In this document: positions 4,901 to 32,243 of the stretch, piece by piece | Position numbering within the stretch: the stretch's first letter is position 1 | Layout of the letters: each line of letters starts with the position of its first letter | DNA from: an uncultured Gammaproteobacteria bacterium | Lineage (GTDB): Bacteria > Patescibacteriota > Microgenomatia > 2-02-FULL-39-11 | Direction: 5' to 3' | Assembly: GCA_964354025.1 (NCBI GenBank) | Contig: CAYGXQ010000005.1 | Coordinates: 3,366 to 67,365 of the forward strand | DNA: 64,000 bases | Program-made: the position numbers and the translations under genes | The notes under the pieces: generated by a model | Seen by the model: the letters and a program-made list of their open reading frames with translations, nothing else | What the model was told of the DNA's origin: nothing | Databases searched by the model: none

Positions 4901-7900
4901 GAATCGGCAAAAATCTCACCACGAAAACAGAAACCTGTCTCTATGAGAATGCGACATGTAAGATTGCCGGTCAATCGGAAATCCTGCAATATGATAGCTA
5001 TGGAAACGCTCTTCAGGTAAAAGACGGTCAGGGCAATATCAGTAAAACTTCCTATGACGGCACATATAATGCTTATCCGAAGAAATCCATTAATGCTTTA
5101 GGCCAATTCAGCACCACCGAGTATGACTTTGAGACCTCTATCTCTGCTACCAACCCGACCAATCTCGGCTTACCAGTATCAGTAACCGATATTAATGGTC
5201 TAGTTTCCAAAAGCACTTATGACGCTTTGGGCTGGCTGAAAGCTGTTTATAAACCGGGTGACACAACTCCATCAGCAGAATTTGAATATCATCTTAATGA
5301 AAACTCACTCTATGGCGTTCCGATTGCCGTCATGGCCAAAGTCCGGACAGAAAAAGGGACGACTGATGAGGCAAAAATTCTCAAGACTTATGACCTTTAT
5401 GACGGTCTGGGCAACAAAGTCCAATCCCAATCGCTCATACGCAATAATAATATTGACCAATTCATTACATCATACGCCGACGTCGACTACACCTGGAATC
5501 AAAATAATCCCGGAGTCAAAACTATCGCCAGCGAAAATTATGACACGGCAAATTTTGGAAAGCTCAACACCACAATGGTCGGGACGACGACCGGAACCGC
5601 CAAGAAATCTTATGCTTTTGCCAATCTCTCCGGCCAGAACTGGAAAAGCATTGATATGAACGGTAACGTCAGCTACTCATACAGCAATCCGGAAGATTTC
5701 ACCGCTAAAACCGTTTCCCCCAACGGTCTGATCGCTTATGCCGCTGCTGATCCGGTTGCCCGAACACAAACCGGTTCAGTCTGTAAAGACATTGTCAGCG
5801 GTTATACTCCCAATGACGGTACTTTTTTAACTGATAAATTCCTACGCAGCTGTCCCGTCTCCGGAGCAAAAATCTCCACCAAGACCGTCTCCGATTTCAT
5901 GGGTAATACCACCTATGTGTATGACAATCTAGGGATCACCAGCGGCGGAAAGCCTTTAACTACCAATATTTATGACTCACTCGGCCGGCTGCGAACCTCA
6001 AATGATGCTGATTTGGGTATTTCAAACGTCGTCGATTTCGATCTTAACGGCAATATTTTAAAAACTACAAACGCGGCCGGGACCGAATTTAGAACTACCT
6101 ATGACGCTCTTAACCGTCCGTTTGAAAAATATGTCGCTGGACAGCTTCGAAATAAATTCTATTATGACCAACCGTATGATGGCCGGATTTGCGGTACTAC
6201 TAGTACTGCTACTAAAGGCAAACTTTGCAAAAAAGAAGAATGGGGCAATGATCCTTTAAGTCCTTCTTCGCAGGGTAATCTGATCCTTAAATATCTCAAA
6301 TATGACGATCTGGGAAGAGTGCTTGAGGAAAGAGTCAATTACGGCGGGACGCTGGCTTCAAAATTCGGCGGCAGCGACTTTGTCACTTCTTATACTTATG
6401 ACAATATCGACCGGGTTTTGACGGTAAAATACCCCGATTTTGCCGGCTCGGGGATTCCCCCAGAAACTGTCACCAATACTTATACGGGGCCTTATCTTTC
6501 GATGGTCAAAGGGGATAAAAATTATGTTAACAGTTTAGCTTATGATTACTTGGGACGCTTAACTAAAAGATCCTTAAATGGAGGAACCGTTTACCCGATA
6601 ACTGAAGACTATGCTTATGACGTCAACAGAAGGCTTTCACAAATCCAGGTCACCAACGTTTCAAAAGATCAGGGCACTTTCAAAGGGGTTAATTTGGCTT
6701 ATAACAATTATGACAGTGCTACCGGCAATATTTTAGGTATTATGGACAACGCTATCTACGCTAACCCGTTGCTTTCCAAAACCATGAATTATAAATACGA
6801 TAATCTTTCCCGACTGGTTTGCGCTGATTCGAGCACTAATTGTAATAATCCCCAGTTTGCCAATGCCCAAAACACATATTCATATGACGATCTGAATAAT
6901 TTATTAAACAAAAAAGAAGATAAAAATTATGCTTTTGCTATCGACAGCAACTTCCCCTACCACGGAGTGAAAAAAGTGACCGCCGGAACTACTCCCGGAC
7001 CAGGTATTTCTTATGATAACCTCGGCCGGATGACTTCCTATACCGTCCCCGGAGGATACCAGATCGATATCCCGAAAGCTGATGGCTTTGACCTCAATTC
7101 CGGCAAGCCGCAAAAGATAGTTTATACCAATCTGGCTGCTATGCCTACTTTAGCATCAACTCCGATTCCCACCGTCACCAAAACTCCGACTCCGACGGCT
7201 ACCAAAACACTGACGCCGACCACGACCGCCGCCGCACAACCGACACTCACTCCAACCAAAACGCTTACACCAACTATTACCAAATCACCCACTCCGACGA
7301 TAACCGGTCAGGCAGTCAAATCACCCACGCCGACTGTCACCAAAACACCCACACCGACAGCAACAGGTGCGGCTGTCAAAACTCCGACTCCGACTACTGC
7401 TCAAACCCAAACCGGAAACATTTTGACTCTTCAACCTTCTCCGGCCGTAAATAACAATCTATCCCTTAATACATCTCTTTCGCCTTCTGCGATCATGACC
7501 AAAGTCAGAAGCACCTGTTCCGTCACCGAAAACAGTAAACTTTCGTATAACACGGCATCAACAAAATACACTTATTCTGTTGTCGTCATCCTGGGTAAAA
7601 CTTATTCATTTAACAACTTCAAGATTCCCACTATTCCCCCTAATGGAATATTTTCCATTTCTTACTCGGGCGGGAAATCAAACTGCCAGGTCAGCTTCCC
7701 CGCCGCCTTAGGCATCCAGGTCCAAGCCCAAACTCCGAGCAACGCGGTCACCGAAGTCTATTATTACGACGGCGAAGGAAGCAGAATCATGAAAGCGCTG
7801 GTAGGTTCTGACGGTAAACTGTCTAATGAAGTCCTTTATATCAACCAATATCTGGAAAAAGACAGAGGCGGCAAACTTTTCCGGAAAAATTATTACGCCG

Positions 7901-9220: not shown

Positions 9221-9276
9221 TTAGCGTTTAGCTCCTAGCGTTTAGCGTTTCGTTTATAACTAGACGCTAGACGCTA
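9221..9276. repeat. Composite heptamer repeat: (TAGCGTT)n half followed by (CTAGACG)n half
   Basis: tagcgtttagctcctagcgtttagcgttt...ctagacgctagacgcta. Copies of the same family lie at 37037-37107 (inverted) and, split, at 37781-37813 plus 37959-37990. Confidence 0.7.
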
Positions 9277-10554
9277 TTTAAATAATTTTCTAAATCTTTC
9301 TTCTTGTTTATACGGTCCTATTATAGCAAGGTTCAGCCGGTTTTGTCCAAAGATATTTTCCGCAACTTCCTGTACTTGGGCCGAAGTCACTTTATCAATT
9401 TTCTCCATAATTTCCTGCGGAGTGCGGATATTTTTTTCCAAAAGTTCGGCCGTCCCGAAAAGCGAAGCGACATTGTGACTGTCTTCCAGTTCGAGAGTCA
9501 GTCTGCCTTTGAGATATTCTTTGGCTTTCCCCAATTCCTCTTCGGAAACCAGTTTATCAGCCATTTTTTGGTATTCGCCAATAATTACTTTGATCGCCTC
9601 ATCAATCCGGCCCACATCCACTCCCGCCTGGGTGACGAAATTACCAACGTCTGTGTATTTTTCTGTAGCTGACCGGACATAATAAGCCAGTCCCCTCTTC
9701 TCCCGCACTTCGATGAAAAGCCGGCTTGACATCCCGCCGCCCAAAACGCTGGTCAAAACTCCCAGAGCGTATCTTTCCGGATGAACCAAAGGATAAGCCC
9801 GCACTCCCAGACAAAGATGCGCCTGTTGGGTGTCTTTGTATTGGACCAGCAATCCCGGTACCTTCTGACCATCATCAACAGTTTCCGCTTTCTCCACTTT
9901 CCTCTTCCCCCACTCCCCAAAATATTTTTTCATTAAATTTATAATTTGTAATTTATAATTTGTAATTTTGTTAATACCTCCCGCAATCACCACCACCGTA
10001 TTCCCCGGCGTATACAATCTGTCCATATAACTAACGAAGTCTTTTCTTTTCACTGACGAAATCACTTCTTTTTTTCCGATAATGTCTCTGCCCAATTTCG
10101 TGTCGCCGTAAAGGAGATTTTCGTAAAGGTCGCCCACTTTTCTCATCGGCAAGTCCTCATACATATTGTATTCTTCGATAATGACGCCTTTTTCTTTAGC
10201 AATCTCTTTTTCATCCAATCGGGAGTGTAACAAAATATCTGATAATATATCAATCAATAAAGGAAGATGTTTCACTGCTGCTTTTATATAATATCCGGTA
10301 TGATCTTTGCTGGTGAAAGCATTGGACTCACCGCCGATGCCATCAACGATCGAGGAAATTTCAAGAGCCGTCGGCCGTTTCTTTGTTCCCTTGAAAGCCA
10401 TGTGTTCAAGAAAGTGCGACAATCCATTGATCCCCTTTTCCTCGAAGCGTGAACCAGCACCGACCAAAACCAAAACCGTCACCGACTCCACCGAAGGCAT
10501 GGGAACAGTGATCAGCCGGAGACCGTTAGTGAGGGTATGTGTTTGGTAGTTCAT
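9274..10554 (-). CDS. M16 (pitrilysin/insulinase) family zinc peptidase
   Basis: Inverted zinc motif HFLEHMAFKGT (HxxEH); length 426 aa; carries an in-frame heptamer tract at 9935-9975. Confidence 0.85.
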   Translation of the reverse strand: MNYQTHTLTNGLRLITVPMPSVESVTVLVLVGAGSRFEEKGINGLSHFLEHMAFKGTKKRPTALEISSIVDGIGGESNAFTSKDHTGYYIKAAVKHLPLLIDILSDILLHSRLDEKEIAKEKGVIIEEYNMYEDLPMRKVGDLYENLLYGDTKLGRDIIGKKEVISSVKRKDFVSYMDRLYTPGNTVVVIAGGINKITNYKLQIINLMKKYFGEWGKRKVEKAETVDDGQKVPGLLVQYKDTQQAHLCLGVRAYPLVHPERYALGVLTSVLGGGMSSRLFIEVREKRGLAYYVRSATEKYTDVGNFVTQAGVDVGRIDEAIKVIIGEYQKMADKLVSEEELGKAKEYLKGRLTLELEDSHNVASLFGTAELLEKNIRTPQEIMEKIDKVTSAQVQEVAENIFGQNRLNLAIIGPYKQEERFRKLFK

Positions 10555-10607: not shown

Positions 10608-11846
10608 TTAAATCTTTGTACCGCGCTCACCACGAAGATCAGCTTTAATATTAGGATCTTTTGACCACACAGTTATTTTATATTCCAGCAAGTCAAAAGC
10701 TCCTTCCCGTTTTATCTCTCCATCAGTACCGGTGTAATCTTTAAAGTCTGTTCTAATCAGTTCTATATGGGCAACAAATCTGAGTGACTCTAAAACTACC
10801 ACCTGACCTGCTCTGGCCGTTTCAATATTGCCAAATTGATACCTTAAATGCTGTCCCTCAAAAACAGGAATTCTGGCATTTGGAGATGTAATCGTACTGC
10901 AAACATTAGTATGACCTGTATTAGGATCATTTAGCTGAAATATTACTTGATCTGACAGATGAAAAACATAGGCATCGTTTACCGGATTATTTGAAGCATC
11001 ACGAGTTTCAAATAAATTATCTATTCTTAAGAAATTAAATCTTGCGCTATCTTCTTCATCAATAAAAAACATTTGGCTTATATCTGTACCATTATTTGTA
11101 AAACTAACCGAATGGCCAATCTGCCTCCAGCTTGGATCAACCGTTGCCTCATTTTTAGCTACTATCCTGCCAGACTGATAAGTATTTCCCTCAACTATTC
11201 TTAACCTTCCATCGGTTTCTGGTAAACTTGTCAAAAGGTGAGCTTCCTCGCTAGGAATAGGAATCGGCGTTGCCCCTGCCCGTGCCCCTTCCGCGTATCC
11301 GGCTGCTTGGATATCCTGCGTCATCTGCTGTCTCCAGGCAGCCAGAGTACCTGATAATCCCGGAGTTTCCATTGCTAATTTGCGCCAATCGGGGGATAAA
11401 TAATCATCCAGGATTACTAAATCCTCTTCGGTAAAACGATTTTGTTGGGAATCAGCCCTCCATTGTGTCGCCCTATGTATAAGATATTTAAGGTAACTTT
11501 TTAATGGTCCTCCATCTTGTGCCGGATCCTGAAATTGGGCTATTTGTCCGTCAGTAAGTTTATCATTTAAATCTAGGTAAGTTGTTAAAACATCCAACCG
11601 AAAATTTTTCTCGCCATCCTCCAAAGGAGCATTAACCAATAAAGACAGATAAACAGGCTCAATTATGTCATCAGTAACAAGATCTTCCGGCAGTTCTCCT
11701 CCCGGTGGCCGCCGTTTCTCTTGAAGCAGTTCGATTTGATGATTAACAACATTAAATATTGCGTTATGAATAGATAACTGACGAGTCTTCTCCGGTTTTG
11801 GCCGCGGATCTCCTGCTGTAAGTGGTGGATCTCCAATTAGTGACAT
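10608..11846 (-). CDS. Hypothetical protein
   Basis: Long ORF with no recognisable motifs. Confidence 0.5.
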   Translation of the reverse strand: MSLIGDPPLTAGDPRPKPEKTRQLSIHNAIFNVVNHQIELLQEKRRPPGGELPEDLVTDDIIEPVYLSLLVNAPLEDGEKNFRLDVLTTYLDLNDKLTDGQIAQFQDPAQDGGPLKSYLKYLIHRATQWRADSQQNRFTEEDLVILDDYLSPDWRKLAMETPGLSGTLAAWRQQMTQDIQAAGYAEGARAGATPIPIPSEEAHLLTSLPETDGRLRIVEGNTYQSGRIVAKNEATVDPSWRQIGHSVSFTNNGTDISQMFFIDEEDSARFNFLRIDNLFETRDASNNPVNDAYVFHLSDQVIFQLNDPNTGHTNVCSTITSPNARIPVFEGQHLRYQFGNIETARAGQVVVLESLRFVAHIELIRTDFKDYTGTDGEIKREGAFDLLEYKITVWSKDPNIKADLRGERGTKI

Positions 11847-11929
11847 ATATTTAAACTATAACACACCCAAAACCTTCGTCAAAGCCCAGAGGAAAAACCG
11901 CGAATTTAGAAGAAATAACTTGTAGAATA

Positions 11930-12898
11930 CTAAGATATTGGATAATGTATGGCAATAAAAGGAGGCACAGGCAAATCCACGCCCGCCATCTTGGCGGCCA
12001 ACTGTTTCATCTCATAGATTGCTGTCATATCCGGCGGAAGAACCGTTACCGCGGTTTTTGCCGGTTCTTCAAGTCCTGCCGACATATTTTTTGAAACCGG
12101 CGGTAACTGCCTGTATTGCTCTATTAGTTCTGGAGTCAGCTTAGTATAAAACCTTTCGTTAAAATTAAACTTAGCATTGTAACTATTATTTCCAACGCTT
12201 GCATGAACCAATCCGTAGCCTAAATCTTCACCGTATGGTTTTATACCTAATCGTGGAGATCCATCATGTTCATGGACTGCCCCGGAATATTCGGCAGATA
12301 AATTTCTTGTCGCATTTTCCCACTCTGGTTTACTTAAGCCTAAATAATCAGAATATACTCCATTACTTTGAACCGTTAGAATCCGTGCTACCGTATCATT
12401 ATTGCTGGCAATGTTACCCTCATGTATCTCAAGTCTTTCTAATTTTCTATCTTCACTTCCAAATTTTAAAAAGATTTTTTTATATCGTTGCTGTTTATGT
12501 TCCAATGAAAGATTGTCAGTGTGGGTTTTAATTTCCAGAATAGTCAGTTGCCCTTTTGGATCTCTATATACACCAATTTCATATTGTGTGTTTAGATTAC
12601 TCGGATCAGCAAGGATTGCTTTTATCCAGGGAGGAAGAGCTTGAGAATCATCAGGATCAGCAAGTTCTCTTTCTCCTTTAAATCCTTTTAATCCGGGCAT
12701 TAATACTTCAACCGCTTGTGAAGTTTGAAATAAGTCAAAATTCTCACTTAGTCGAGTCAGCGCGCTTCTCCATGAATCCTGTTCCCTGCCGGAAACCATG
12801 GGCGGCATTTGATCTCCCCAATGGTCAGCTTGTGCAACCGGAACTATTTTCGGGGGGGGCAAACCGGCAGTAGCATGTTCAGGAACCAACATTACCAT
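11930..12898 (-). CDS. Hypothetical protein
   Basis: Long ORF with no recognisable motifs. Confidence 0.5.
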   Translation of the reverse strand: MVMLVPEHATAGLPPPKIVPVAQADHWGDQMPPMVSGREQDSWRSALTRLSENFDLFQTSQAVEVLMPGLKGFKGERELADPDDSQALPPWIKAILADPSNLNTQYEIGVYRDPKGQLTILEIKTHTDNLSLEHKQQRYKKIFLKFGSEDRKLERLEIHEGNIASNNDTVARILTVQSNGVYSDYLGLSKPEWENATRNLSAEYSGAVHEHDGSPRLGIKPYGEDLGYGLVHASVGNNSYNAKFNFNERFYTKLTPELIEQYRQLPPVSKNMSAGLEEPAKTAVTVLPPDMTAIYEMKQLAAKMAGVDLPVPPFIAIHYPIS

Positions 12899-12972: not shown

Positions 12973-13224
12973 CTATTTTGCGTAATGGTTGTTGATATCA
13001 ACAATTTCCGCTTCACCATCATCTGTCAGAATAAAAATCGCCCTGTATTTCCTGTCTATCCGGAAAGAATAGATCTTCAATTCTTTTGGCTCGAGAATTT
13101 CCGTGTGTAATGAGGGATGTTTCGGATTGACGGTGAAAAAAGCTATCTGTCTCTCCAGTTTCCGTTCCAGTCTATGTTTTTTGGCGTAATTTAAAAGATC
13201 AGCTCGGAGCGGCTTAACCGGCAT
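12973..13224 (-). CDS. RelE/ParE-family type II toxin
   Basis: 83 aa; RelE/ParE-like pattern; 11 nt overlap with the upstream RHH gene. Confidence 0.65.
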   Translation of the reverse strand: MPVKPLRADLLNYAKKHRLERKLERQIAFFTVNPKHPSLHTEILEPKELKIYSFRIDRKYRAIFILTDDGEAEIVDINNHYAK

Positions 13225-13477
13225 AGGCAGACGACTTTGATAATCCTTTTGTAACGCTGTTGATAAACTTGCTGTTGTATTTACCTGTTTTGGCCATTTT
13301 CTGCCTTACTTCCTCAAGAGGCCGCGGAGTAAAAACTTCCAATTCCAACTCTCCGGAAAAATATTTCCGCAGGAGAGCGCGGATAAATTCAGAACGGGTG
13401 GCATAACCCTGTCTGGAAGTTTCTGTCTCGACTAAACTGGCAACCTGTTCCGGTAAAGAAATCGTAAATGTAGTCAT
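13214..13477 (-). CDS. Ribbon-helix-helix (CopG/ParD-like) antitoxin
   Basis: 87 aa; the N-terminal ..ISLPEQVASLVETE..RSEFIRALLRKY pattern is typical of RHH. Confidence 0.6.
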   Translation of the reverse strand: MTTFTISLPEQVASLVETETSRQGYATRSEFIRALLRKYFSGELELEVFTPRPLEEVRQKMAKTGKYNSKFINSVTKGLSKSSAYAG

Positions 13478-13530
13478 ATAAGAAATTTTAACAAATTTTC
13501 TTATTTATTGTCAAGATAGATTAAAAATAT

Positions 13531-15012
13531 CTATAACACACCCAAAACCTTGGTCAAAGCTTGGGTTTCGAATTGGTTGAAGCTCTCGATATCACCTACT
13601 GCTTGCTGATTCAAGCAGACGAAAATCGAATAAGAACCATCTGGTTTTATAAAGCCTCCCATATCGTGGTGATTCATGCCAACTTTAAATTCACCTTCAC
13701 CGATTATATGAAACGATGAAATGCTACTTGGAACTGGGTATTGCGTCTTAAAATATGCCAATCTTGTTTTATTATCTGTTTGTTCCGCTAAAGCCTGTAT
13801 GATAAAATCTCTGTCTTCATCTTGAAGTAATCGTCTATTAATAATATTCCCAAGTATTTTGCCTAAATCTCCAGCCGTAGTCATAAAAAGTTGATGCGAT
13901 ACACTATAGTCAGTCTTCGTCAGCTCTAGTTCTGTCTGTAATCTTTTTGCAATGATTTTACAGGATGCATCCCAATTTCTTGTGCCTGTCAATTGATAGA
14001 CCAATCCTTCATATACATATTCATCGTGATTCCTCAATAGTCTAAATATCGCCTCCCGAAAGTTTGGGTAAGTATGTCCCATAAAAACCACCGGATTTGT
14101 TAGATTGTATTTTGCCGGATTTTGACGGATATCCCGCAAGGCCAACATTGCTATAGGCAGTGTAATCAAACTCCAGGCTTCAAAGGGGACTTCCGAATTC
14201 ACGGCAATCACTTCACCTTTTTCATTTTGGGCAAAAAAGGCGGACTGCCCGGGCATTTCTTTTGCCAAACCGGCAATCTCCTCCTGCACTTCGGCGATCA
14301 ATACCGTCCTGTCTTTCACCGGTCTGGTCGGCTTTTCCAAAACATGTTCTTCCCTTTCCCGGTAAATGCCTCCTCCGCCATAACCCTGTCCGGGCGGGTT
14401 GACTGTTTCTATGACCGGTGGAGCTTGTATAGCTGAAGGTTTTTCCGGTATAAATTTGGAAAGAATCCATCCCAAACCGGCTGCACCGGCCGCACCTGCC
14501 AATCCGATCACTAATTTCCTTCTCGTTTGACAAAAACGTATCCGGTTATCAACCAGATAACCGAAATTGGCAATTTTCCTTGCGGCTGTCCGGTCAAGTT
14601 GATCAATGCTGATAGCCTGCGGGTCTCCCCATGCCTGACCGTTATATTTTCTCACCGCAAAAGATACCTCATCGCCTTCTATATTCAAGCAATAATATTT
14701 ATCCGGACTGGTTCTGGAAAAATAACCTACTTCGCTCAAAGCCTCACCTTGCAATCTCACTAAAAAACTGTCTCCCTCATCTAACTCCAAAACCGCCTTA
14801 TCTTTCTTAAAAGACACATCTCTGCCCAAAGCAAAAAGAAGAGTATCTTCTTGAGGTTTTTCCGCCACCACCGGCGTTCCCCTGAACAGCTCAAATTCCG
14901 TCAAGGCTTTAGCCAGCGGCCGGCTATGGTCTATCAACCACGAAGTATTTATCCTTTCTTCGCTTTGTGCCGGATTAATGGATAAAGCAGCTATCTCGCC
15001 AGTCATAATCAT
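13531..15012 (-). CDS. Membrane-anchored protein whose C-terminal domain resembles a degenerate class A beta-lactamase or transpeptidase fold
   Basis: Central TM (LVIGLAGAAGAAGLGWIL) and a GYGGGG tract. The C-terminal region aligns by eye with class A landmarks: FEAWSLIT for FxxxSxxK (Lys replaced by Thr), TRN for SDN, KVG for KTG, then a DMGGFIKPDGSYSIFVCL-like strand. Confidence 0.5.
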   Translation of the reverse strand: MIMTGEIAALSINPAQSEERINTSWLIDHSRPLAKALTEFELFRGTPVVAEKPQEDTLLFALGRDVSFKKDKAVLELDEGDSFLVRLQGEALSEVGYFSRTSPDKYYCLNIEGDEVSFAVRKYNGQAWGDPQAISIDQLDRTAARKIANFGYLVDNRIRFCQTRRKLVIGLAGAAGAAGLGWILSKFIPEKPSAIQAPPVIETVNPPGQGYGGGGIYREREEHVLEKPTRPVKDRTVLIAEVQEEIAGLAKEMPGQSAFFAQNEKGEVIAVNSEVPFEAWSLITLPIAMLALRDIRQNPAKYNLTNPVVFMGHTYPNFREAIFRLLRNHDEYVYEGLVYQLTGTRNWDASCKIIAKRLQTELELTKTDYSVSHQLFMTTAGDLGKILGNIINRRLLQDEDRDFIIQALAEQTDNKTRLAYFKTQYPVPSSISSFHIIGEGEFKVGMNHHDMGGFIKPDGSYSIFVCLNQQAVGDIESFNQFETQALTKVLGVL

Positions 15013-17627
15013 ATTCTCACTCCTGTTTGTCTGGCTTGGGCGCGGCGCAGACCAGCTCTTACTGCTTTTTGACCTCTTATCATTTCATTTCGCTTCGCGT
15101 TTGAAACTGCCCGGCTTTCTGCCCGGATACCGGCTCCTTGTTTTTCCTGATATTCTTTCCAACCAACAGGCCTTACCTCTCCTCCGGCTGATTGGGTTAA
15201 AGTGACCGGATGGACAGACTGCAGTCTGGTAGATACCGGTTGCTCGCCGTAATAAGCGGCGCCGGAGAGATATTTCGCCCGCGATTTGACTAATTTGTCC
15301 AAAGTCTTCAAAGCTTCTTTTTCATCTGCGTCCGTCAAAATAGCAATGATCGAGGATTTTTCGTCTGTACCGGCTTTGGCACGCAAAAGATGAAAAAGTT
15401 TGCCGTTAACCATGAAATGGCTAATATCTGCTTGATAACCAAGATCAGGTATTTCCGTTCCACCCTGAAAATCAGCCGGGGTGAGAGTTAAACCCGGACA
15501 AAAGCCGCTGGTACCGATTGCTCCCTTGGTTGAACAAACTTCTTGTCCATCTACTTTTATGCTTTTTATCACCGTCGGTTCCAGATGCCGGCCGCCCAGA
15601 TCAATGGAAAATGCAGTCATTAAATCAAGCATAGAAAATCTGCCTTTCTCTGTTTCTATCAATAAATCAGCTGGAGAAATATTTCCTGCCATAGCACTCA
15701 CCAAACTTGCTTTCTCTTTATCAATAATATCTAAAACCGCGATTGAATTGGTTCCTTTCAATTTAGCCGCTTCTTCAACCGCCACCTTTTGTATCCCCGC
15801 TTCCAGAGTGGTTTGCACCTCCACACTGTAATTGGGAAGATTCTTTCCAAACATCTTCTCCAATTCGCCAAAAACCATGCCATTATAAAAGTTTCTTTCC
15901 TGCGGCACTTCCGGAGTCAGGATTTTTACCTGGTCCAACTCTTTCAATATCTCTGATTTTTCATCCGGATTGACTGCTCCTTTCTTGATTAAATTATCCA
16001 AAACGTCTTTAGCATGATTTAATAAAGCTATCTTACCTTCCGATGTTGTTGGATCATAAGTTGTTGGCGACTGGATCATGGCGGTTAAAAGTAATGACTG
16101 GGCTCTATCTAAATCTTTGGCGTCTTTACCAAAGTAGATTTGGGCGGCTGCTGGTACCCCATTACACTGGTTGCCTAAATAGATTACATTCAAATACATT
16201 TCCAGAATTTTATTTTTCGGATAATTACGAGTGATTTCATCGGCCAACAACCATTCTTTCACTTTTCTTGGTAATGATTCTGTTCTTGCGTATTCCGGGC
16301 TAAATAACAAATTACGGGCTACCTGTTGGGTGATAGTCGATGCTCCTCCTTCTCTGATAAACGGCATGATGCTTTTTATTTGAGAAGGAGTAATCTTGCC
16401 AAAAAAAGCTTTGATGATATCCGGCACGTTATAACCGGCATTGGTGTAAAAAGTCGGATCTTCATTTCCGACTGCATAAGCGATCATATATTGTGATATT
16501 CCATCTATGGAAACATAATTTTTCAAACCGCCTTCGGGAGCAAATCTGACCGTTATCGGAGTGCCTGTACTATCTTCTATCGTCACCGGCTGATTTGCCC
16601 GCGTCTGTTCCGCCAATTCGGTTGTGGGAGGTAAATGCAATTTATCCATAAACATCGGCCTGACCCCCTGAGACCAAGTAGCGTCTAGAACTCCCAGCGG
16701 AAAATCAATTACATAAGGCTTGGTAATAGGACTGGTGGCCAACGCATAAGCCGCTATCGCCATTACCGCCGGACCTTTTAAGCGCAACAATTGCGCCAAA
16801 TATCTCTGATACAAGGCTTCCTGTTTAGCATGAAGAATTCGTGGCGTCGTGGCAGCCTTCCTTTCTGCTTTTTCTCTTGTTTGTTTTTCTTTCCTATCAG
16901 CCACCCTTTTCTCCACATCTGCCACAATCGCTTTCATCTTGCCTGGTTCTCCGGCCGCTCTTTCAACCTCAAAAATCAGATCAGAAGCACTAATGGCTAA
17001 TCGGATATATTTTCTTTCGCCGGCTTCCATCCGTTCTTCTTTTTTCCGCATCACTTCTCCCAAGACTTGGGTTAACCGTATCCTGCCAAGTGTTAAAGAT
17101 CTCTCTACTTCCTCAAGTAAATGTGAAACTGACATGGCCGGTCTGAAGGCGCTAGTAATCTCTTCCCTGAGTTGTTTGACAGCCGGAAAATCTTGGGGAA
17201 AGTGTTCTGTCAGTTGTTTAGTTGGATAAAAGTTAAGAACTCGAAAATCATTTTCGGTGATTGCATATAGAGTAGGATTGTCATGATATTGGGCTAATCT
17301 TTCTTCAAGGTATGCTCTCCAGGCAAGATAAGGAGCCTCTTTGGGATTAGCCGTTATCTGTTCTCTCAAGGCAATTGCCTGATCTTTACTGGCTTTCCCT
17401 TTAGATTCCAATATAGTCAGGATTTGTACATAACCTGCCGGTTCTACGCTGGTCACTATCAGGGCCAGAAGACTATCAGGATAAGGTTGTTCAGGATGAC
17501 TTTTCTGGCGTTGGATCTGCTCTGTTAAACAACCAAAGGCAATGTCTGACCGAGTGAGTGTTGGTCTTACCTCAGGTTCTACGTTTAGTCCTACCCTTAG
17601 TGGTGAAGTTAATTCAGCTGATATCAT
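15009..17627 (-). CDS. Large protein with an internal GT51 peptidoglycan glycosyltransferase (transglycosylase) domain; no transpeptidase motifs
   Basis: All five GT51 motifs seen: GNEDPTFYTNAGYN, GGASTITQQVARNL, RKVKEWLLADEITRNY, KNKILEMYLNVIYLG, RAQSLLLTAM. A TM segment precedes the domain. The N-terminal extension is about 285 aa. ATGA overlaps on both sides. Confidence 0.8.
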   Translation of the reverse strand: MISAELTSPLRVGLNVEPEVRPTLTRSDIAFGCLTEQIQRQKSHPEQPYPDSLLALIVTSVEPAGYVQILTILESKGKASKDQAIALREQITANPKEAPYLAWRAYLEERLAQYHDNPTLYAITENDFRVLNFYPTKQLTEHFPQDFPAVKQLREEITSAFRPAMSVSHLLEEVERSLTLGRIRLTQVLGEVMRKKEERMEAGERKYIRLAISASDLIFEVERAAGEPGKMKAIVADVEKRVADRKEKQTREKAERKAATTPRILHAKQEALYQRYLAQLLRLKGPAVMAIAAYALATSPITKPYVIDFPLGVLDATWSQGVRPMFMDKLHLPPTTELAEQTRANQPVTIEDSTGTPITVRFAPEGGLKNYVSIDGISQYMIAYAVGNEDPTFYTNAGYNVPDIIKAFFGKITPSQIKSIMPFIREGGASTITQQVARNLLFSPEYARTESLPRKVKEWLLADEITRNYPKNKILEMYLNVIYLGNQCNGVPAAAQIYFGKDAKDLDRAQSLLLTAMIQSPTTYDPTTSEGKIALLNHAKDVLDNLIKKGAVNPDEKSEILKELDQVKILTPEVPQERNFYNGMVFGELEKMFGKNLPNYSVEVQTTLEAGIQKVAVEEAAKLKGTNSIAVLDIIDKEKASLVSAMAGNISPADLLIETEKGRFSMLDLMTAFSIDLGGRHLEPTVIKSIKVDGQEVCSTKGAIGTSGFCPGLTLTPADFQGGTEIPDLGYQADISHFMVNGKLFHLLRAKAGTDEKSSIIAILTDADEKEALKTLDKLVKSRAKYLSGAAYYGEQPVSTRLQSVHPVTLTQSAGGEVRPVGWKEYQEKQGAGIRAESRAVSNAKRNEMIRGQKAVRAGLRRAQARQTGVRI

Positions 17628-20600
17628 ATTCGGCCTCTCCCCTGGTTAAACGTTCTTGCTTGTTGTCTGACAAATCTAGTTTGCGCTTTTTGGGCTGCCA
17701 GTCTTTGTGTCTTATCCCGGGCCGGCGTGCTGATCCCGTATGTTGCTCCCCTGGCCGGAGGTACTATCGAAGAAAGCTGGTCCTGCTCAAAAGCGGAAAT
17801 GACCGTTTTTATCCTCTCCTGAAGTTTTTGCAAAGGAATGGTACTGTTTTCCGTCTGCACTGTCACAATGGGTTGTCCCCGCACATCCGGCACTGCCTGA
17901 ATAAACAACTTACGGCCATCTTCTATTAAGAAACTCATCCCATCGGCAATCGATTCGTTCAGCGCATTCAACATCGGTGGGCTTAGATGCTGGCCTTTAT
18001 AAATTTCCTGCACCAAACCGGCAATATCAAAAGTACTGGTTTTGAAATGCAAGCGCCCATACGCATCATAATAATATTCGCTTTTTGACATCCGGTTGTT
18101 AGTCAGCAGGTATCGGTTTAATTTAACGGTATCTACTTTAAAAGGCCCGGTAGACGAAGCAAAACCAACCCGGTTAGCCAATGCTTCGATATATCTTTTA
18201 CTGGACGGATCGCCTTTGGCCGCCTGCACCACTGCTTCCCGGATGGAATATTCTTGTAATCCCGGGACATAAGTCCAAAACGCGGCAGAACCGCCGGCTT
18301 GGCTGGCAACCCAGATTTTATCGTCATAAGTAAGTTTATGATCTGAAATTAGCTTGTTAATTTCATCTAAAGAAACCAACAAAAGCATTTCCTGTGAAAA
18401 TCCGCCTGCTTCAAACTGGTTTGACGCATTAGCTTCAATTATCTTGCTATTCCTGTCTATGGCCACCAAAGAAGCTTGTCCTCCCGAAGCTTTCAGCGAT
18501 TCTGACAAGGTAAATTGCGCTGAAACCAGAGATTTTCCCTGACTATTGAGACGCAGATTGCCTTCTTTAAGGTCGGAAAGATCCGGCAGTTGGTTAAAAG
18601 AAACCGGCTGGACATTTTCGTTGAAACCTCTCGGGCCGTAGTAGTAATATTTACCATCCTGACCAACGAAGACATTGGGCGCTTCCAATTTTACCGGAGA
18701 TTTATCAACTCCCATCACTTCACCGTCAATCGGCCCAATGGTATAAGCCCTTATTTCTCCGGAAGAATCATAATAAATTATTTGATCCCGCACTAATGTC
18801 GGATTAGTCAGATTTGCCAACGAATCCACCGGCTGCCTTTTGGTTTGTTCTGAAGTGGCAAATAACTGATAAATTGTTTTCCCTTTTCCCGTTCCCCATG
18901 AAAAAGTAAAGGCTGTCTTTTGCGCCACCAGGTAATATTCGCCGCCGTTCCTCGGGAGCCAGACTTCTATCACACCATCCTGCAGTCTTTCATTATTTAC
19001 CACCCTGACCGGCTGTCCTTTTTGCAGATTGCCGTCAACCAGCGCCCAGACTGATTCCGTATCTCCAACGACGCCACCGCCGATTACACCTCCGCTTTGA
19101 AGAGTAGTCTGTGGCCTACTGGCTACTAACAAATTTTGTATGAGAATATATTTCGGGCCTTCTCCGATAGCCACCACTTCCAGTTTGCCTGAAGCGGGAT
19201 TGACGATAAAAAACCGGTCAGTCGCCACTTCCTTACCGTCTTTCCCTCTTTCGAAGTACCGGTAAACCGAAGCCGTATAACCGGGTTTGACATTTAATAC
19301 CCCGCCAAAATTTGCCAAGTCAATGGTCATCTTTATATCTTTCTGGCCTACCAGATAGCCGCCGTCTTTTGTCACCAATACTTGCGGTTCATATAAATAA
19401 TCAGCGAGACTGACTTCTGTTGCTTTGGTTCTTTGCAAAATCTCGGCTAAAAATTGAGTTCTTCCCAAATCCTCCGGTCTTCTTCCATGCGACCTTGATA
19501 ATTCTCTGATATTAATTTCTTCTTTAAACTGTTTTTTGGGATCGAAATCACCTCTGAATCGGGCTTTCCCCAACTCTTCCGGTTTTCCATCACCGGCTCC
19601 CAAAAAGATCCCGTTTTCCAAAACATAAATAGTCGGCAAACCGTCGTGCGCGGCAATGGCGTAAATATTCTGGTTGCCATAAACGAAGCTGGTAGCCTGG
19701 GCCACCAACTGGTTTCCTTCGGCATCAACCCCAAAATCCACATAGACAGTTTTGCCGGCGGCATTGGTATAAATCAAAATCCCTTTATCATTTTCGGTGA
19801 TGATATTTAAACCCCAAGCTGGATCCTGCAGGGTATAAGTCGTTGAATCGAAGATGCCGTCATTGCCAAAACCGGCTCTCATATCGTCAAATTGCTCTTT
19901 GGTCTTGATATCTTTGGCAAAAAATACTTTTTGCCCCGGTTTAACCAGTTCAATCTGCTGGTAATTATTCGGATCACTAGACCGAGTCCAACCGACGATC
20001 TCTCCAGTTCTTAAAATCAAAAACTGGGGAACCGGTTGGCCTTTATCGTCACTACGGAAAGGCGTCCGGTAAATCGGTTTATCCGGATTATTATCCAAAA
20101 TCAGCTTACCACCCTCATCCAAGACTTTTACCGGACTGCCATCTTGCATCTTACCGAAATCCGGATAACTGCCATCGGGATTAGTCAGGTATCTCACAAA
20201 CTGGGTGGCTCCCGCAGTCTCCGTTGCAGTCCGCTCAAGATATGGCACCGGCCTTTGGGAACCGTAAAGAGCATTTTTTTCCCCTTCAAAATTGTCAATA
20301 TCCAACCTTATGCCAACCCCTGCCGGAATGAAATGATTCGGATCCTGTGCGGTGGTCGTACGGGCTGGCAGCTGATAGCCTTTTTCCGGATAAGCGATTG
20401 CTTGTTCAACGCCTGGCAAAACTTTAACTGAATGGCGGGGTACTGTCACCAGGTCATATCCGACTACTTTTTTAGTAACTCCCTCATCTGTCCGATCAAT
20501 GCTTACCATCGGCACCACTCTTGTCTGCGCTTCGACTTCAGCGGTTGTATATGGCTTGTAAGGAGTAAGTAATTGGGCGGCGGTAAAAACCGCAGTCGAA

Positions 20601-23600
20601 GCCACAGCCGGTATTACTTTGGCTGCCAGTTTTTTTCTTTTTTCTCTTACTTGTGCTCCGCGTTCTCTGATTCCAACTACTAATTCCTGATCATCTTCTC
20701 TGATCGGCCGCAAACCGGTCCCGGTGTTGACGATTGAGCCAACCGGGAAATTTGGATTGAAACTGCTGTCTCTGACGATACAAACTAACTCCTTCGTCTG
20801 ATGATCCTCAATGATAATTACTTGGGCAATGTAATCACGATGGAAAAGAGCGTCCACAGCCAGCATCGCTTCCTGCAGGATGGGAGAGGCAAATCGTTTC
20901 CGCGGGTCACGCGGATAACGTTTGATAGCGACAGCATAAACCTGATTTTTAGGATCCATCAGTTTTGACTTTACCATTTGTGACTCAGCCACCGCGGGAA
21001 TATTTAAGAGATCCGTCCTTGCAAACATGGTAGTTGCTCCTTTCCCCACTGGATGAAGCTTCATGCTTTTCTCTGTTGTAATGTCGTAGGCGGCAAAAGA
21101 CGATCTTGTTTTTCCTTTTTTATCGGTTACCGGTTGCCTGGTAATCACCAGTTCCGCCTGCCGTCCATCTCCCAACATAGAACCAATGGCTACTCCCGCT
21201 GCTTCAGAACCGGCTGAATAATAACCGGTCGACGTATGATCCCTCCAACCGCGGATGATTTGTTGATAATCAACAGATGGCAATCTTTCAACCGGAATCG
21301 GGTCTTCTTCCTGACAATTATTCGCGGCGGCCGGATCAATCACAAAACACCTGATCCTTCTTTCTTCACCTTCCATCATCTCATACAAAACCACACTGGG
21401 ATGTCTCAAAGGGCTATTTGGTCTGGGAGCGATAACCGCCTCTAATTTTTGTTCACCGGCCGTATTTGTTAAAACTGAAAATCCAAATTGCTGGGCAATG
21501 CCGGGTTTATTTCCTTCTGATCCGATCGGATTTAATTGGTGAATCGGCCCGTAATTTTTCTCCAATGTATCCTCTGTTGCGCTTTCAAATCTCGCTATAT
21601 CTCTTTTTCCGCCCGACTCGTCATAAACTACCGGCCGGTTTTGGTCCGGATCCCAGACGATCCTAAAATACATACCATCAACCGTTATTTCAAACACCTC
21701 CCCGAAAGCTTTCCGTCTTTTCTCCAGATTTGTCTCGAGTAATTTTGCCGTTGCCTTAGCGGTCACTTCCCGGGCTGAAGATAAAATTCTCTCTTCAAGT
21801 ATTTCTGATAGAGGACTGGAAAACCCTATTCCCAAGGCAAAAGCTTTATTACCCGGCTGTCTGCTCCGGTCAATGGCCACCAGTTCTTTCCGGCCGCCCC
21901 CCCGCTCGATGATAAAGACTTCGCCAATCGCGGCGGCTCTTCCGGCCATTTCATCTGTCACCAGTTCCGGCCTTTCTCCGCTGGCTATAAATCTCAAATG
22001 ATAGATATTATCTGACCCGCCCAAATGGTATTCCTGTTTCAACCTTGAAAACTCTGAACTTTCCGCAAATCCACCTCCCTGCCAGACTCTGGTAGGCACT
22101 CTGGTGATTTTATACTGGTTTCCCTGTCCGTCAATCAAAACAACCTCATGCCGGAGAGCGGCCTTCGAAGGCGGAATATAAAGTTCCAAAGTTTTGTCAC
22201 CCAAAATATCAAGTTGGACAATTTCATCCGGTTTAAAAACGGCACGGGCTATGGCCGGATGAAAAGGTGTCCCTTCAACATATCCTCTGTCGAAACCGGT
22301 ACAAAGCTTTCTCGGGTCATCATCTTCAAGCGGCGCAATATCCGGATCTGTCCCCTCAGGATAAACAAAAGATAAAATCGGTACGTTTACTCCTTCTACA
22401 CGGGTATTAATAAGCTGGACTCTCGGTAAATGTCGTGTTCTCCGGTTATATGGTAAATATTGTGGATTGCCATCAGGATCGCGGGTTATGCAAACAGCGT
22501 AAATTTCTTCATTTAAGGGATTAACGGCCATATCTCTAACCGGATGAAAAGAGATATAACCCAACCCCGGATCAACCAGTCTCACTTCTGTCCTATTTCC
22601 CTCGGTTCTGGCATCAACCATGAATTCAATTCCCTGTCCCGTTTGTTCTTCCAGCCTGACCAAAGTCGGTTGCGTTAAAGATAATTCTTCGCTTGGCATA
22701 CCTGCTTCAACCTGAATCTGACTTTCCCGTAAAAGGCGTTTTTCTACTTCATTTCTCAGAGCTTTTTCCGCTCTTTGCGCTAAGTCAGAAGTAGCTGCCC
22801 GGAAAACCGCTTCCGCGCCTTTTTGCACCCCCGCTTGGGCGACTTGAGCCACAGTTTTGCCTGCTTCGCCCAACCAAACACCGGCGTCAAACAAAGCTGT
22901 TCCTGTTTCCCTTGCCCGCTCCACAACCTCTTTTCCGGTGAGCAGCAAGGCTCCCTGGGCACTTGGTAGAATCGGAACAGGATGAACTAAAAGTGGCAAT
23001 TCCTGTTGGTAAAACACAAAGTACGGATCATTAGGCGGCATCCGCTCTAAAACTTCCCGGTAACGTTCCGTCACCCAGGCAGCCATCACTGCTTCTGACG
23101 GGCTAACCGTCCGGCCGTTTTCATGTCCAGCCTCCCATACCCTCGGCCACAAATACTTGGATATCACCCGGGCGTTGGTGTCGGTCATGGCTAAATCCGG
23201 CGAAACAGCCGGACCCAGCATCCTTCCAATCAGTTCGTCTCTGACAAAAGAGATATCGTCTACCTCAAAAGTTTTCGGTAAAAGATAAAGAAGGGCAGCC
23301 GTCTTTCCGTCGATCGGCCGGTTACTCGTCCGATACTCAAGCACGGTCTCCAAAATGGCGCGAAGCAGCGGCTGTGAAATCTCATTTGAGCCAAAACCGG
23401 CGCGCGGTTCTGTCCGGGGGGCTAAAAATTCATCACCGATGGCTTTGTAATAAGCGTAAATTCTATCGTTTCGAAGCTCATCGTGGCGGTTGAGGATATC
23501 AACGCTGATACCTATCATCTTACAGTCCACCTCGTTTAAATTTCCGCCGTATAATTCCAGATAACCGGCCCGCAATCCCAAATGCCCGGTGATGATCCCC

Positions 23601-23743
23601 AGCATCCGCCGGTCTCTTTCCTGTCTGTCCAAACTGGCGCAATCCATGAGGTGTTGTACTGTTACCTGCTGGTCAAGAGAAGGTAGAGGTAAAGGCAATG
23701 GCCGGGCTTCCGCTGGCGGCGGTGGGGCAGGTGTTTCCATCAT
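17624..23743 (-). CDS. Giant (2039 aa) hypothetical protein, first gene of the overlapping operon
   Basis: Uninterrupted ORF; Pro-rich N-terminus; no recognisable catalytic motifs. Confidence 0.7.
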   Translation of the reverse strand: MMETPAPPPPAEARPLPLPLPSLDQQVTVQHLMDCASLDRQERDRRMLGIITGHLGLRAGYLELYGGNLNEVDCKMIGISVDILNRHDELRNDRIYAYYKAIGDEFLAPRTEPRAGFGSNEISQPLLRAILETVLEYRTSNRPIDGKTAALLYLLPKTFEVDDISFVRDELIGRMLGPAVSPDLAMTDTNARVISKYLWPRVWEAGHENGRTVSPSEAVMAAWVTERYREVLERMPPNDPYFVFYQQELPLLVHPVPILPSAQGALLLTGKEVVERARETGTALFDAGVWLGEAGKTVAQVAQAGVQKGAEAVFRAATSDLAQRAEKALRNEVEKRLLRESQIQVEAGMPSEELSLTQPTLVRLEEQTGQGIEFMVDARTEGNRTEVRLVDPGLGYISFHPVRDMAVNPLNEEIYAVCITRDPDGNPQYLPYNRRTRHLPRVQLINTRVEGVNVPILSFVYPEGTDPDIAPLEDDDPRKLCTGFDRGYVEGTPFHPAIARAVFKPDEIVQLDILGDKTLELYIPPSKAALRHEVVLIDGQGNQYKITRVPTRVWQGGGFAESSEFSRLKQEYHLGGSDNIYHLRFIASGERPELVTDEMAGRAAAIGEVFIIERGGGRKELVAIDRSRQPGNKAFALGIGFSSPLSEILEERILSSAREVTAKATAKLLETNLEKRRKAFGEVFEITVDGMYFRIVWDPDQNRPVVYDESGGKRDIARFESATEDTLEKNYGPIHQLNPIGSEGNKPGIAQQFGFSVLTNTAGEQKLEAVIAPRPNSPLRHPSVVLYEMMEGEERRIRCFVIDPAAANNCQEEDPIPVERLPSVDYQQIIRGWRDHTSTGYYSAGSEAAGVAIGSMLGDGRQAELVITRQPVTDKKGKTRSSFAAYDITTEKSMKLHPVGKGATTMFARTDLLNIPAVAESQMVKSKLMDPKNQVYAVAIKRYPRDPRKRFASPILQEAMLAVDALFHRDYIAQVIIIEDHQTKELVCIVRDSSFNPNFPVGSIVNTGTGLRPIREDDQELVVGIRERGAQVREKRKKLAAKVIPAVASTAVFTAAQLLTPYKPYTTAEVEAQTRVVPMVSIDRTDEGVTKKVVGYDLVTVPRHSVKVLPGVEQAIAYPEKGYQLPARTTTAQDPNHFIPAGVGIRLDIDNFEGEKNALYGSQRPVPYLERTATETAGATQFVRYLTNPDGSYPDFGKMQDGSPVKVLDEGGKLILDNNPDKPIYRTPFRSDDKGQPVPQFLILRTGEIVGWTRSSDPNNYQQIELVKPGQKVFFAKDIKTKEQFDDMRAGFGNDGIFDSTTYTLQDPAWGLNIITENDKGILIYTNAAGKTVYVDFGVDAEGNQLVAQATSFVYGNQNIYAIAAHDGLPTIYVLENGIFLGAGDGKPEELGKARFRGDFDPKKQFKEEINIRELSRSHGRRPEDLGRTQFLAEILQRTKATEVSLADYLYEPQVLVTKDGGYLVGQKDIKMTIDLANFGGVLNVKPGYTASVYRYFERGKDGKEVATDRFFIVNPASGKLEVVAIGEGPKYILIQNLLVASRPQTTLQSGGVIGGGVVGDTESVWALVDGNLQKGQPVRVVNNERLQDGVIEVWLPRNGGEYYLVAQKTAFTFSWGTGKGKTIYQLFATSEQTKRQPVDSLANLTNPTLVRDQIIYYDSSGEIRAYTIGPIDGEVMGVDKSPVKLEAPNVFVGQDGKYYYYGPRGFNENVQPVSFNQLPDLSDLKEGNLRLNSQGKSLVSAQFTLSESLKASGGQASLVAIDRNSKIIEANASNQFEAGGFSQEMLLLVSLDEINKLISDHKLTYDDKIWVASQAGGSAAFWTYVPGLQEYSIREAVVQAAKGDPSSKRYIEALANRVGFASSTGPFKVDTVKLNRYLLTNNRMSKSEYYYDAYGRLHFKTSTFDIAGLVQEIYKGQHLSPPMLNALNESIADGMSFLIEDGRKLFIQAVPDVRGQPIVTVQTENSTIPLQKLQERIKTVISAFEQDQLSSIVPPARGATYGISTPARDKTQRLAAQKAQTRFVRQQARTFNQGRGRI

Positions 23744-32210: not shown

Positions 32211-32243
32211 ACAACCCCTCCCCCTCTCCAGCGGGGAAGATTA
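32211..32243. repeat. Hairpin repeat family CCCCTCYCC..TTTCCGGCGGGGRA, copy a, at the 3' end of a minus-strand gene
   Basis: Four related copies: 32211-32243, 33201-33237, 33779-33809 and 34124-34150. Confidence 0.6.

Follow-up and report, generated by a model that had tools for sequence, protein, structure and literature searches.

Can the fold of a class A beta-lactamase be kept in a cell-wall operon after its catalytic residues have gone, and what would such a domain do there? This question is raised by g493, a minus-strand gene in a 64,000-nt stretch of DNA from a Microgenomates relative (contig CAYGXQ010000005.1, positions 3,366 to 67,365; this whole stretch is called the window, and positions are counted from its first letter). 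A preliminary description of g493, made by eye, had placed a class A beta-lactamase-like domain with substituted motifs at 13575-14265 (residues 250-480), and had proposed that, if real, it would be a probably non-hydrolytic, penicillin-binding-like sensor or scaffold domain, translationally coupled to a protein with a transglycosylase domain. In the present analysis the domain was recovered by profile, model and fold searches, its motifs were mapped again, and its relatives and their gene neighbourhoods were compared. Our best explanation, to which we give a little better than an even chance, is that g493 encodes a retained pseudo-enzyme which serves as a non-catalytic accessory subunit of a Microgenomates cell-wall module.

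Fold of the g493 ectodomain

Pfam PF13354 (Beta-lactamase2) matched residues 259-463 of g493 with an E-value of 6.3e-11 and 42.5 bits, covering profile positions 3-209 of 214. The curated gathering cutoff of PF13354 is 22 bits, so g493 is a member of this sequence family. The ectodomains of the eight family proteins described below were aligned (alignment A1, 8 sequences). Used as a profile against the PDB, A1 found S. aureus PC1 (6wgr) as its top match with an E-value of 4.3e-7. A Chitinophaga enzyme (6v4w) came next, and then CTX-M, Toho-1 and PER-type enzymes and PBP-A (E-value 2.8e-4).

With A1 as input, AlphaFold2 modelled residues 235-493 with a pLDDT of 89.7 and a pTM of 0.89, while the single-sequence model of the whole protein was unusable (pLDDT 37.7). 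The preliminary description had named a Foldseek search of an AlphaFold model as its check. This search returned 837 PDB matches at E≤0.001, and 50 of the 50 matches listed were proteins with the class A beta-lactamase fold, so that membership of the superfamily is clear. The best match was LRA-5 (8eo7/8eo5; E-value 5e-13, TM-score 0.80). The cyanobacterial PBP-A followed with TM-scores of 0.74-0.77 (2j9o/2j7v; 0.77 for 2j9o), and after these two came PER, TLA, CTX-M, BlaC and TEM. The TM-scores to class A-fold structures ranged from 0.68 to 0.81. The two-domain organization of class A enzymes, alpha/beta plus all-alpha, is present in the model. By sequence profile and predicted structure, the g493 ectodomain has a class A beta-lactamase fold, and the domain assignment of the preliminary description holds.

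The likeness escapes simple sequence searches. Whole g493 gave nothing relevant against the PDB with phmmer. A word-indexed search of 5.8 billion proteins with g493 returned only g493 itself, and with the domain alignment it returned nothing. A scan of genome contigs with the g493 protein found no relative, and neither NCBIfam nor PHROGs matched it. The family emerged only from an exhaustive HMMER scan, which covered 1.84 billion cluster representatives and gave just eight proteins at E≤0.001. A phage origin of g493 was also considered and is unsupported, PHROGs being without a match.

Catalytic motifs of g493

For the motif map, the family profile was aligned by HMM to each of the solved enzymes 6wgr and 6v4w; the two independent alignments agree, and were combined with A1. 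The aligned boxes are listed in Table 1. The first motif, FEAWSLITLP, had been read correctly in the preliminary description, with Ser kept (S281) and Lys changed to Thr (T284). The SDN equivalent had been assigned to LTGTRNWD, which in the alignments is a loop of the class A 'IGG' region; the real site lies 12 residues earlier, in 'LRNHDEYVY', where the relative P0007 reads a literal SDN in the same columns. The KTG equivalent is in 'SFHIIGEG', at a position where relatives read K-I/F-G. The segment next to it, 'HHDMGGFIKPDGSYSIFVCL', matches strands beta4 and beta5. This second half of the string earlier proposed for the KTG region had been placed rightly, but its FKVG (residues 442-445) is not the KTG box and sits in the following hairpin. 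The two motifs were misplaced because canonical spacing had been assumed. The equivalents of Ser70 and Ser130 are 48 residues apart in the family versus 60 in canonical enzymes; the segment from helix H2 to the SDN loop is shortened by a deletion.

Glu166 on the Omega loop, with Asn170, is the deacylation base of class A enzymes. The family profile offers no position for Glu166 and the next residue of PC1 (Ile167), which align as an insertion, and the alignment of the Omega loop is uncertain here. The AlphaFold2 model has a short beta-hairpin at this place. In g493 the catalytic and substrate-anchoring residues Lys73 (Thr), Ser130 (His), Asn132 (Glu) and Lys234 (Ile) are all replaced and Glu166 has no aligned counterpart. 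None of the 3 class A boxes, SxxK, SDN and KTG, is intact. The same is found when g493 is compared with PBP-A-type DD-peptidases: the fold is present and the intact SxxK/SxN/KTG set is absent.

Characterised class A enzymes and penicillin-binding proteins (PBPs) depend on both Lys73 and Lys234. The loss of these two lysines alone should abolish acylation and carboxylate recognition. On this motif map the g493 ectodomain is very probably catalytically dead, and neither beta-lactam hydrolysis nor DD-peptidase activity is to be expected of it. The earlier wording 'probably non-hydrolytic' is strengthened by the corrected map, whereas penicillin binding in the covalent sense is unlikely in a protein without Lys73 and Lys234. 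We rejected a functional beta-lactamase since the SxxK, SDN and KTG boxes are all substituted.

Live and dead members of the family

The named members of the relatives' clusters belong to Patescibacteria, Candidatus Roizmanbacteria and Candidatus Brennerbacteria, and one relative is annotated as 'serine hydrolase'. Most relatives retain SxxK and KxG. The three boxes read SLIK/SSD/KFG in P0005, SLIK/SSE/KFG in P0008, SLIK/SSE/KIG in P0006 and SLIK/GNG/KIG in P0002; P0007 reads SLVK/SDN and its sequence stops before the KTG box. P0004 resembles a truncated copy. Only g493 (SLIT/HDE/IIG) and P0003 (DLIN/HKN/ITG) are dead, and both carry S130H and K234I. Two strings that line the active site, FEAW-S-LI and HDMGGF, are conserved across the family.

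From these boxes the family looks like a group of PBP-A-type DD-peptidases, two of which, g493 and P0003, no longer have the machinery. The domain tree gave no resolved order for g493, P0002 and P0003. The loss of catalysis probably occurred once, before g493 and P0003 separated, because S130H, K234I and the genomic neighbourhood are common to both. Identity between the two domains has fallen to 36%, against 72% for the adjacent M16 peptidases. An intact coupled open reading frame (ORF), a conserved core and a confidently predicted fold despite 36% identity argue against simple decay and for a domain that selection has long kept for a non-catalytic role.

The operon and its junctions

g493 is the third and last gene of a tightly packed minus-strand cell-wall operon, in the order g2039, g872, g493. 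Both junctions are ATGA stop/start overlaps with a purine-rich Shine-Dalgarno sequence ahead of them. The one before g493 stands 7 nt ahead of its ATG; the ATG of g872 is preceded by GGGGAGAGG, a Shine-Dalgarno-type sequence, and the g2039/g872 overlap lies at 17624-17627. Translational coupling of g493 to the transglycosylase-domain protein, as had been proposed, is thus seen at 15009-15012. The operon most likely ends at g493, because a promoter-like site with near-consensus elements (TTGACA-18-TAAAAT, 13485-13514) lies between its stop codon and the next gene pair.

A protein identical to g493 is encoded on a Logan contig (L001) assembled independently from another run, and g493 is therefore no assembly artefact. 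The arginyl-tRNA synthetase of the window shares 87% identity with its counterpart in a Candidatus Microgenomates metagenome-assembled genome.

Table 1. Position and character of the operon genes, the parts of g493 and its catalytic-box equivalents in the window.
Feature	Position	Strand	Description	Basis
g2039	17624..23743	-	2039 aa, bitopic, first operon gene; transmembrane segment ~1041-1061; no functional assignment by Pfam, NCBIfam or PHROG	
g872	15009..17627	-	872 aa, bitopic GT51 peptidoglycan glycosyltransferase; GT51 = residues 369-544 (15996-16523)	
g872/g493 coupling junction	15009..15024	-	AGGAG 15020-15024; g493 ATG 15010-15012; g872 TGA 15009-15011	
g493	13531..15012	-	493 aa, bitopic: N-terminal domain, transmembrane anchor, linker, beta-lactamase-fold ectodomain	ORF list, Pfam PF13354
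N-terminal domain, ~160 aa (residues 1-161)	14530..15012	-	Beta-rich, predicted cytoplasmic, no known homologue	
Twin-arginine translocation (Tat)-like QTRRK motif and single transmembrane helix	14449..14529	-	LVIGLAGAAGAAGLGWILSKFI (residues 167-188)	Hydropathy scan; alignment A2
Pro/Gly-rich extracellular linker (residues 189-234)	14311..14448	-		Sequence read; low pLDDT in full-length model
Class A beta-lactamase/PBP-A-fold ectodomain (residues 235-493)	13534..14310	-		Pfam, AlphaFold2, Foldseek
SxxK-box equivalent S281-L-I-T284	14161..14172	-	Ser70 kept, Lys73 to Thr	Aligned to PC1 STSK, 6v4w SVFK
SDN-loop equivalent H329-D330-E331	14020..14028	-	Ser130 to His, Asn132 to Glu	Aligned to PC1 YSDNTA, 6v4w QSDNNG
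KTG-box equivalent I436-I437-G438	13699..13707	-	Lys234 to Ile, only Gly kept	Aligned to PC1 DKSGQA, 6v4w HKTGSS

Topology and the Tat-like anchor

The sole strong hydrophobic segment of g493 is formed by residues 167-188. Five basic residues stand on its N-terminal side (NRIRFCQTRRK), and the other side has no net charge. The N-terminus is therefore predicted to be inside and the beta-lactamase-fold domain outside the membrane, on a stalk. g872 and g2039 seem to be built alike (N-terminus inside, transmembrane segment, ectodomain), with weaker hydrophobic segments.

The N-terminal domain had no Pfam match, and its profile found nothing significant in the PDB. It is conserved in P0002, P0003, P0006 and in L010_g625, a protein of a related locus described below. 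T163-R164-R165 (14518-14526) is invariant in 4 of 4 aligned relatives (alignment A2) and is also present in L010_g625. T-R-R-K-L-V followed by an Ala/Gly-rich helix fits a twin-arginine motif, but it stands about 160 residues from the N-terminus and behind a folded domain, which is atypical. No tatA or tatC was found in the 64-kb window. The ectodomain of L010_g625, which contains HExxH, is 32% identical to L002_g418, and L002_g418 bears a canonical N-terminal SRRSFLKVG Tat signal. This homologue suggests that g493-type proteins may carry an internal Tat signal-anchor.

Cell-wall partners of g493 and its relatives

Pfam PF00912 matched g872 with an E-value of 5e-44, and both catalytic Glu motifs (EDxxF and RKxxE) align to the glycosyltransferase domain of Aquifex PBP1a. 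PF00905 had no match in g872. Residues ~620-800 (15228-15770) are a vestigial transpeptidase in which the lead-in 'aavvldp..G.vlAmvG' can be recognised. In a MAFFT alignment with ordinary class A PBPs, the transpeptidase of g872 and its nearest homologue P0021 is reduced to its first part, with a substituted SxxK and neither SxN nor KTG. P0021 likewise has GT51 without a detectable transpeptidase, and every other homologue listed is a PBP with GT51 and PF00905. g872 has the GT51 part of a bifunctional class A PBP and lacks its transpeptidase part, and so falls outside that definition. 'GRFSMLD' was tried as the SxxK box of g872 and dropped, since MAFFT instead pairs 'GGRHLEP' with 'PGSAIKP'; the box is lost under either alignment. 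The C-terminal remnant of g872 found nothing usable in the PDB with phmmer.

The C-terminus of g2039 also found nothing usable in the PDB with phmmer, and a match of this part to TAL effectors was discarded as a repeat artefact with no significant individual domain. The family profile matched residues 1751-1917 of g2039 (17993-18493) below significance (7 bits, E-value 0.06 against the six-frame set). This weak match starts at the expected place, 'SLVAIDRNSKIIEANASNQFEAGGFSQ' against 'SAFFAQNEKGEVIAVNSEVPFEAWSLIT', and the C-terminal part of g2039 may hold the fold a second time, in a still more degenerate form.

Wherever the context of a relative could be read, it links the domain to a peptidoglycan enzyme. 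P0005 and P0008, giant proteins of about 3000 residues from Roizmanbacteria/Brennerbacteria, combine GT51, the PF00905 transpeptidase and, C-terminally, this domain in one chain. In P0003 and P0006 a g493-type N-terminal domain and transmembrane anchor are followed by an LCP (LytR-CpsA-Psr) domain and then by the beta-lactamase-like domain. P0002 is built like g493, and a 4-nt overlap joins its gene to an Amidase_2 gene upstream. g2039 showed no similarity to the N-terminal 1700 residues of the giant fusion proteins, and the 'Rosetta stone' argument therefore covers only GT51 and the beta-lactamase-like domain. Genes upstream of the giant fusions in L007 and L008 had no homologues in the window.

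A syntenic operon was found on contig L010, which holds P0021: GT51, a 4-nt overlap, LCP, a further 4-nt overlap and L010_g625 (L010:4199-6076). The first 235 residues of L010_g625 are 57% identical to the N-terminal domain and anchor of P0002, and the HExxH ectodomain takes the place of the beta-lactamase-like one. An M16 peptidase gene (pitrilysin family, YfmF/YfmH-like; 72% identical) lies downstream of g493 (9274-10554), downstream of P0003 on contig L002 (L002:7800-9041), and a few genes downstream of the L010 operon (L010:10012-11286). Upstream of this peptidase the genes are reshuffled. The window has g2039, GT51 and the beta-lactamase-like gene; L002 has a sigma70-like gene and then the LCP and beta-lactamase-like fusion; L010 has GT51, LCP and the N-domain with HExxH. 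The sigma70-like gene of L002 (L002:1771-3723) encodes a 650-residue protein with a long N-terminal extension and C-terminal sigma-70 regions 2, 3 and 4, and ends 7 nt before the P0003 gene. Judged from gene order and protein similarity, this is a conserved but modular cell-wall locus of Microgenomates in which g493 is the terminal anchored-ectodomain gene.

Related Arg/Gln-rich tails (e.g. ..RARQQARASERGQLNRAQQQARANIPRVRGRA) end every non-terminal protein of these operons, namely GT51, LCP, Amidase_2 and the 2039-residue protein. They lie at 15012-15125 (g872), 17627-17731 (g2039) and at the ends of L003:3-1334, L010:94-2175 and L010:2172-4202; the tails of the L010 LCP protein and the L003 amidase are 70% identical. 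The Shine-Dalgarno/ATGA overlap explains the last few codons of such a tail, not its 30-50 residues. The tail is possibly a docking or sorting peptide.

Comparison with known proteins

The nearest structural neighbour of g493, LRA-5 (PDB 8EO5/8EO7), comes from a soil metagenome and is described as a 'precursor'. Its class A fold is without Glu166, a residue for which g493 has no aligned counterpart. The beta-lactamase activity of LRA-5 is biologically insignificant, and the substitutions Y69Q and V166E turn it into an active beta-lactamase (PMC12777564). LRA-5 is soluble and of a single domain, whereas g493 has an N-terminal domain, a transmembrane anchor and a GT51 operon. In g493, unlike LRA-5, the equivalents of Lys73, Ser130, Asn132 and Lys234 are gone, and the two are only about 15-17% identical.

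PBP-A (Tll2115) of Thermosynechococcus elongatus (PDB 2J7V/2J9O) likewise has a class A-like fold without Glu166, and it acts on peptidoglycan; its PDB entries include an L158E mutant. It is an active DD-carboxypeptidase/endopeptidase (PMC11189452) and, by the title of PDB 2J8Y, forms an acyl-enzyme with penicillin G. PBP-A acylates, while g493 is without the residues required for acylation. PBP-A is cyanobacterial and periplasmic and has neither the N-terminal domain nor the TRR anchor of g493. The catalytically intact relatives P0005-P0008 probably resemble PBP-A in function. On its predicted motifs g493 goes further than LRA-5 and PBP-A, the known examples without Glu166, since both lysines and Ser130 are lost too.

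With the Ambler class A enzymes (S. aureus PC1, TEM, CTX-M, PER) g493 shares PF13354. Its secondary-structure elements follow one another as theirs do, and its Ser occupies the place of their nucleophilic Ser at the start of helix H2. It differs from them in K73T, S130H, N132E and K234I, in the unaligned E166, in a shorter segment from H2 to the SDN loop and in a beta-hairpin in place of the Omega loop.

BlaR1 and MecR1 are, like g493, membrane proteins with an extracellular domain of a penicillin-recognising fold. BlaR1, however, has a class D-type sensor that needs acylation and a multi-pass M56 zinc protease, while g493 has a dead class A-type domain and one transmembrane helix. Neither an M56 match in Pfam nor an HExxH motif was found in g493. 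We rejected a BlaR1-like sensor because M56 and HExxH are absent, one strong transmembrane segment is present and the fold is of class A type.

The dLytM factors EnvC and NlpD are degenerate hydrolases that act as non-catalytic partners of amidases. Like g493, they have an enzyme fold whose catalytic residues are lost, which has been retained, and which is genetically tied to peptidoglycan enzymes. The likeness is one of analogy and not of homology. In dLytM a LytM fold goes with amidases, and in the g493 family a beta-lactamase fold goes with GT51, LCP and amidase. An activator role of g493 would be purely an inference.

Other genes in the window and around the relatives

Directly downstream of g493 lie a ribbon-helix-helix antitoxin gene (13214-13477) and a RelE/ParE/HigB-like toxin gene (12973-13224), with the promoter-like site at 13485-13514 as their own. 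Between this toxin-antitoxin pair and the M16 peptidase, at 10608-12898, two ORFs of 412 and 322 aa had no Pfam, NCBIfam or PHROG match and no predicted transmembrane segment. A 112-aa ORF lies just upstream of g2039 (23940-24278).

Genes of conflict or mobile type are found at 1954-8778, 28362-29726, 32241-32918, 34762-35574 and 39254-40633. They encode a 2274-aa RHS-repeat protein, two AAA_14/DUF4143 ATPases and two AbiEii-family nucleotidyltransferase toxins. Two permeases of the MacB/FtsX type of ATP-binding cassette transporters are encoded at 37994-39202 and 46917-48146.

The giant fusion genes of GT51, transpeptidase and beta-lactamase-like domain in L007, L008 and L009 are followed by a HEPN/MNT pair. 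A small helical protein is encoded on the opposite strand beside P0005 (L007:14503-14991, 162 aa) and beside P0006 (L004:1259-1573, 104 aa). The two copies are 33% identical and had no Pfam match.

Possible roles of g493

A role of g493 in the cell wall is argued from its coupling to GT51 here, and from the fusions with GT51 and PF00905, the fusions with LCP and the Amidase_2 overlap elsewhere. As a non-catalytic accessory subunit, g493 would be made, through the ATGA coupling, in fixed stoichiometry with the GT51 glycosyltransferase and the 2039-residue surface protein. Its ectodomain would be displayed outside the membrane on the Pro/Gly-rich stalk. The former substrate groove may hold peptidoglycan stem peptides, or a partner enzyme or ectodomain, and g493 would then act as an adaptor, scaffold or regulator in the wall module.

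Several points weigh against this explanation. The family comprises 8 clusters only, so its conservation statistics are weak. Ser281 is kept and His329 and Glu331 stand at the positions of Ser130 and Asn132, so that a non-canonical catalysis may be conceivable; moreover E361, in 'TELEL', is a Glu conserved in the family that stands a few residues ahead of the Glu166 position. Linkage of the genes is association and no proof of a physical complex. Lastly, the region also holds toxin-antitoxin, Abi and RHS genes, and the operon could serve interaction with a host rather than the cell's own wall.

A wider proposal, which we put forward as possible and rather doubtful, is that g493 belongs to a so far undescribed 'plug-in' system restricted to Patescibacteria. 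In this system the N-domain and the internal twin-arginine signal-anchor would display swappable ectodomains (PBP-A-like, LCP plus PBP-A-like, HExxH), co-translated with Arg/Gln-tailed GT51, LCP or amidase proteins. In the lineage to which the window belongs, the PBP-A-like ectodomain would have turned into a dedicated non-catalytic regulator or adaptor of GT51. If this were true, g493 would be the PBP-derived counterpart of the dLytM activators.

The same architecture of a cytoplasmic domain, one transmembrane helix and an ectodomain of ligand-binding type would also suit a transmembrane sensor. On this view, non-covalent binding of a wall fragment or a beta-lactam by the dead ectodomain would be signalled through the transmembrane helix to the N-terminal domain, which would control a cytoplasmic partner such as a sigma factor. 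Conservation of the N-terminal domain does not depend on the ectodomain, and the gene for P0003 begins 7 nt after that of the protein with sigma-70 regions. However, the g493 operon contains no sigma factor or other signalling gene, and no resemblance of the N-terminal domain to anti-sigma, kinase or protease domains could be detected. The same N-domain and anchor also carry the enzymatic LCP and HExxH ectodomains, which a generic role in anchoring or assembly fits better. We consider a sensor unlikely, the preference for a scaffold being drawn from genomic association.

Distinctly unlikely is that the operon is aimed at the wall of another cell, as a surface module recognising host peptidoglycan in the episymbiotic or parasitic lifestyle proposed for the Candidate Phyla Radiation (CPR). 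This would agree with an organism related to Microgenomates, with an operon that starts with a 2039-residue surface protein in a region rich in toxin-antitoxin and Abi genes and a giant RHS protein, and with the fast evolution of the domain (36% against 72% for the neighbouring M16 peptidase). In other small bacteria, giant proteins have been linked to attack on the cell walls of prey (bioRxiv 10.1101/2023.11.21.568195). A module directed at a host is compatible with a non-catalytic binder, and is hence a variant of the accessory-subunit explanation and no contradiction of it. Against it, biosynthesis from the cell's own lipid-linked precursors is the work of GT51, LCP and the class A PBP fusions.

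We regard as improbable that g493 is still an active acyl-serine enzyme (a DD-peptidase, an esterase or a weak beta-lactamase) in which Ser281 is activated by His329 together with Asp330 or Glu331. Ser281 survives although its surroundings have changed, a His stands at the S130 position in both Lys-less members, g493 and P0003, and FEAW-S-LI and HDMGGF are still conserved in the family. But P0003 has the His with an Asp in place of the Ser, so the His does not track the nucleophile. The two lysines that characterised enzymes cannot do without are gone, and a hydrophobic Ile for Lys234 removes the carboxylate anchor.

Highly improbable, finally, is a decaying relic, that is, the gene of a former PBP-A-like enzyme which no longer has a role and is drifting to a pseudogene. 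In favour of it are the replacement of four catalytic positions, the very small size and patchy occurrence of the family and the apparent truncation of P0004. Against it, the ORF of g493 is intact over 493 codons, with a good Shine-Dalgarno sequence and coupling to the gene upstream, its non-catalytic core is conserved enough for a confident model from only 8 sequences, and the dead state (S130H, K234I) persists in two lineages at 36% domain identity.

Significance

What is new here is a membrane-anchored domain of the PBP-A/class A fold, catalytically degenerate by its predicted motifs, in a very small family restricted to CPR bacteria. g493 should not be counted as an antibiotic-resistance determinant, despite passing the beta-lactamase threshold of Pfam. 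It is a further case of the class A/PBP-A fold outliving its catalytic machinery, and its genetic tie to GT51, LCP and amidase genes is unusually clear. This tie makes g493 a candidate for a non-catalytic partner of the wall enzymes of CPR bacteria, a group whose envelopes are biologically almost uncharted. The live and dead members together form a natural comparison set for what this fold does after enzymatic loss.

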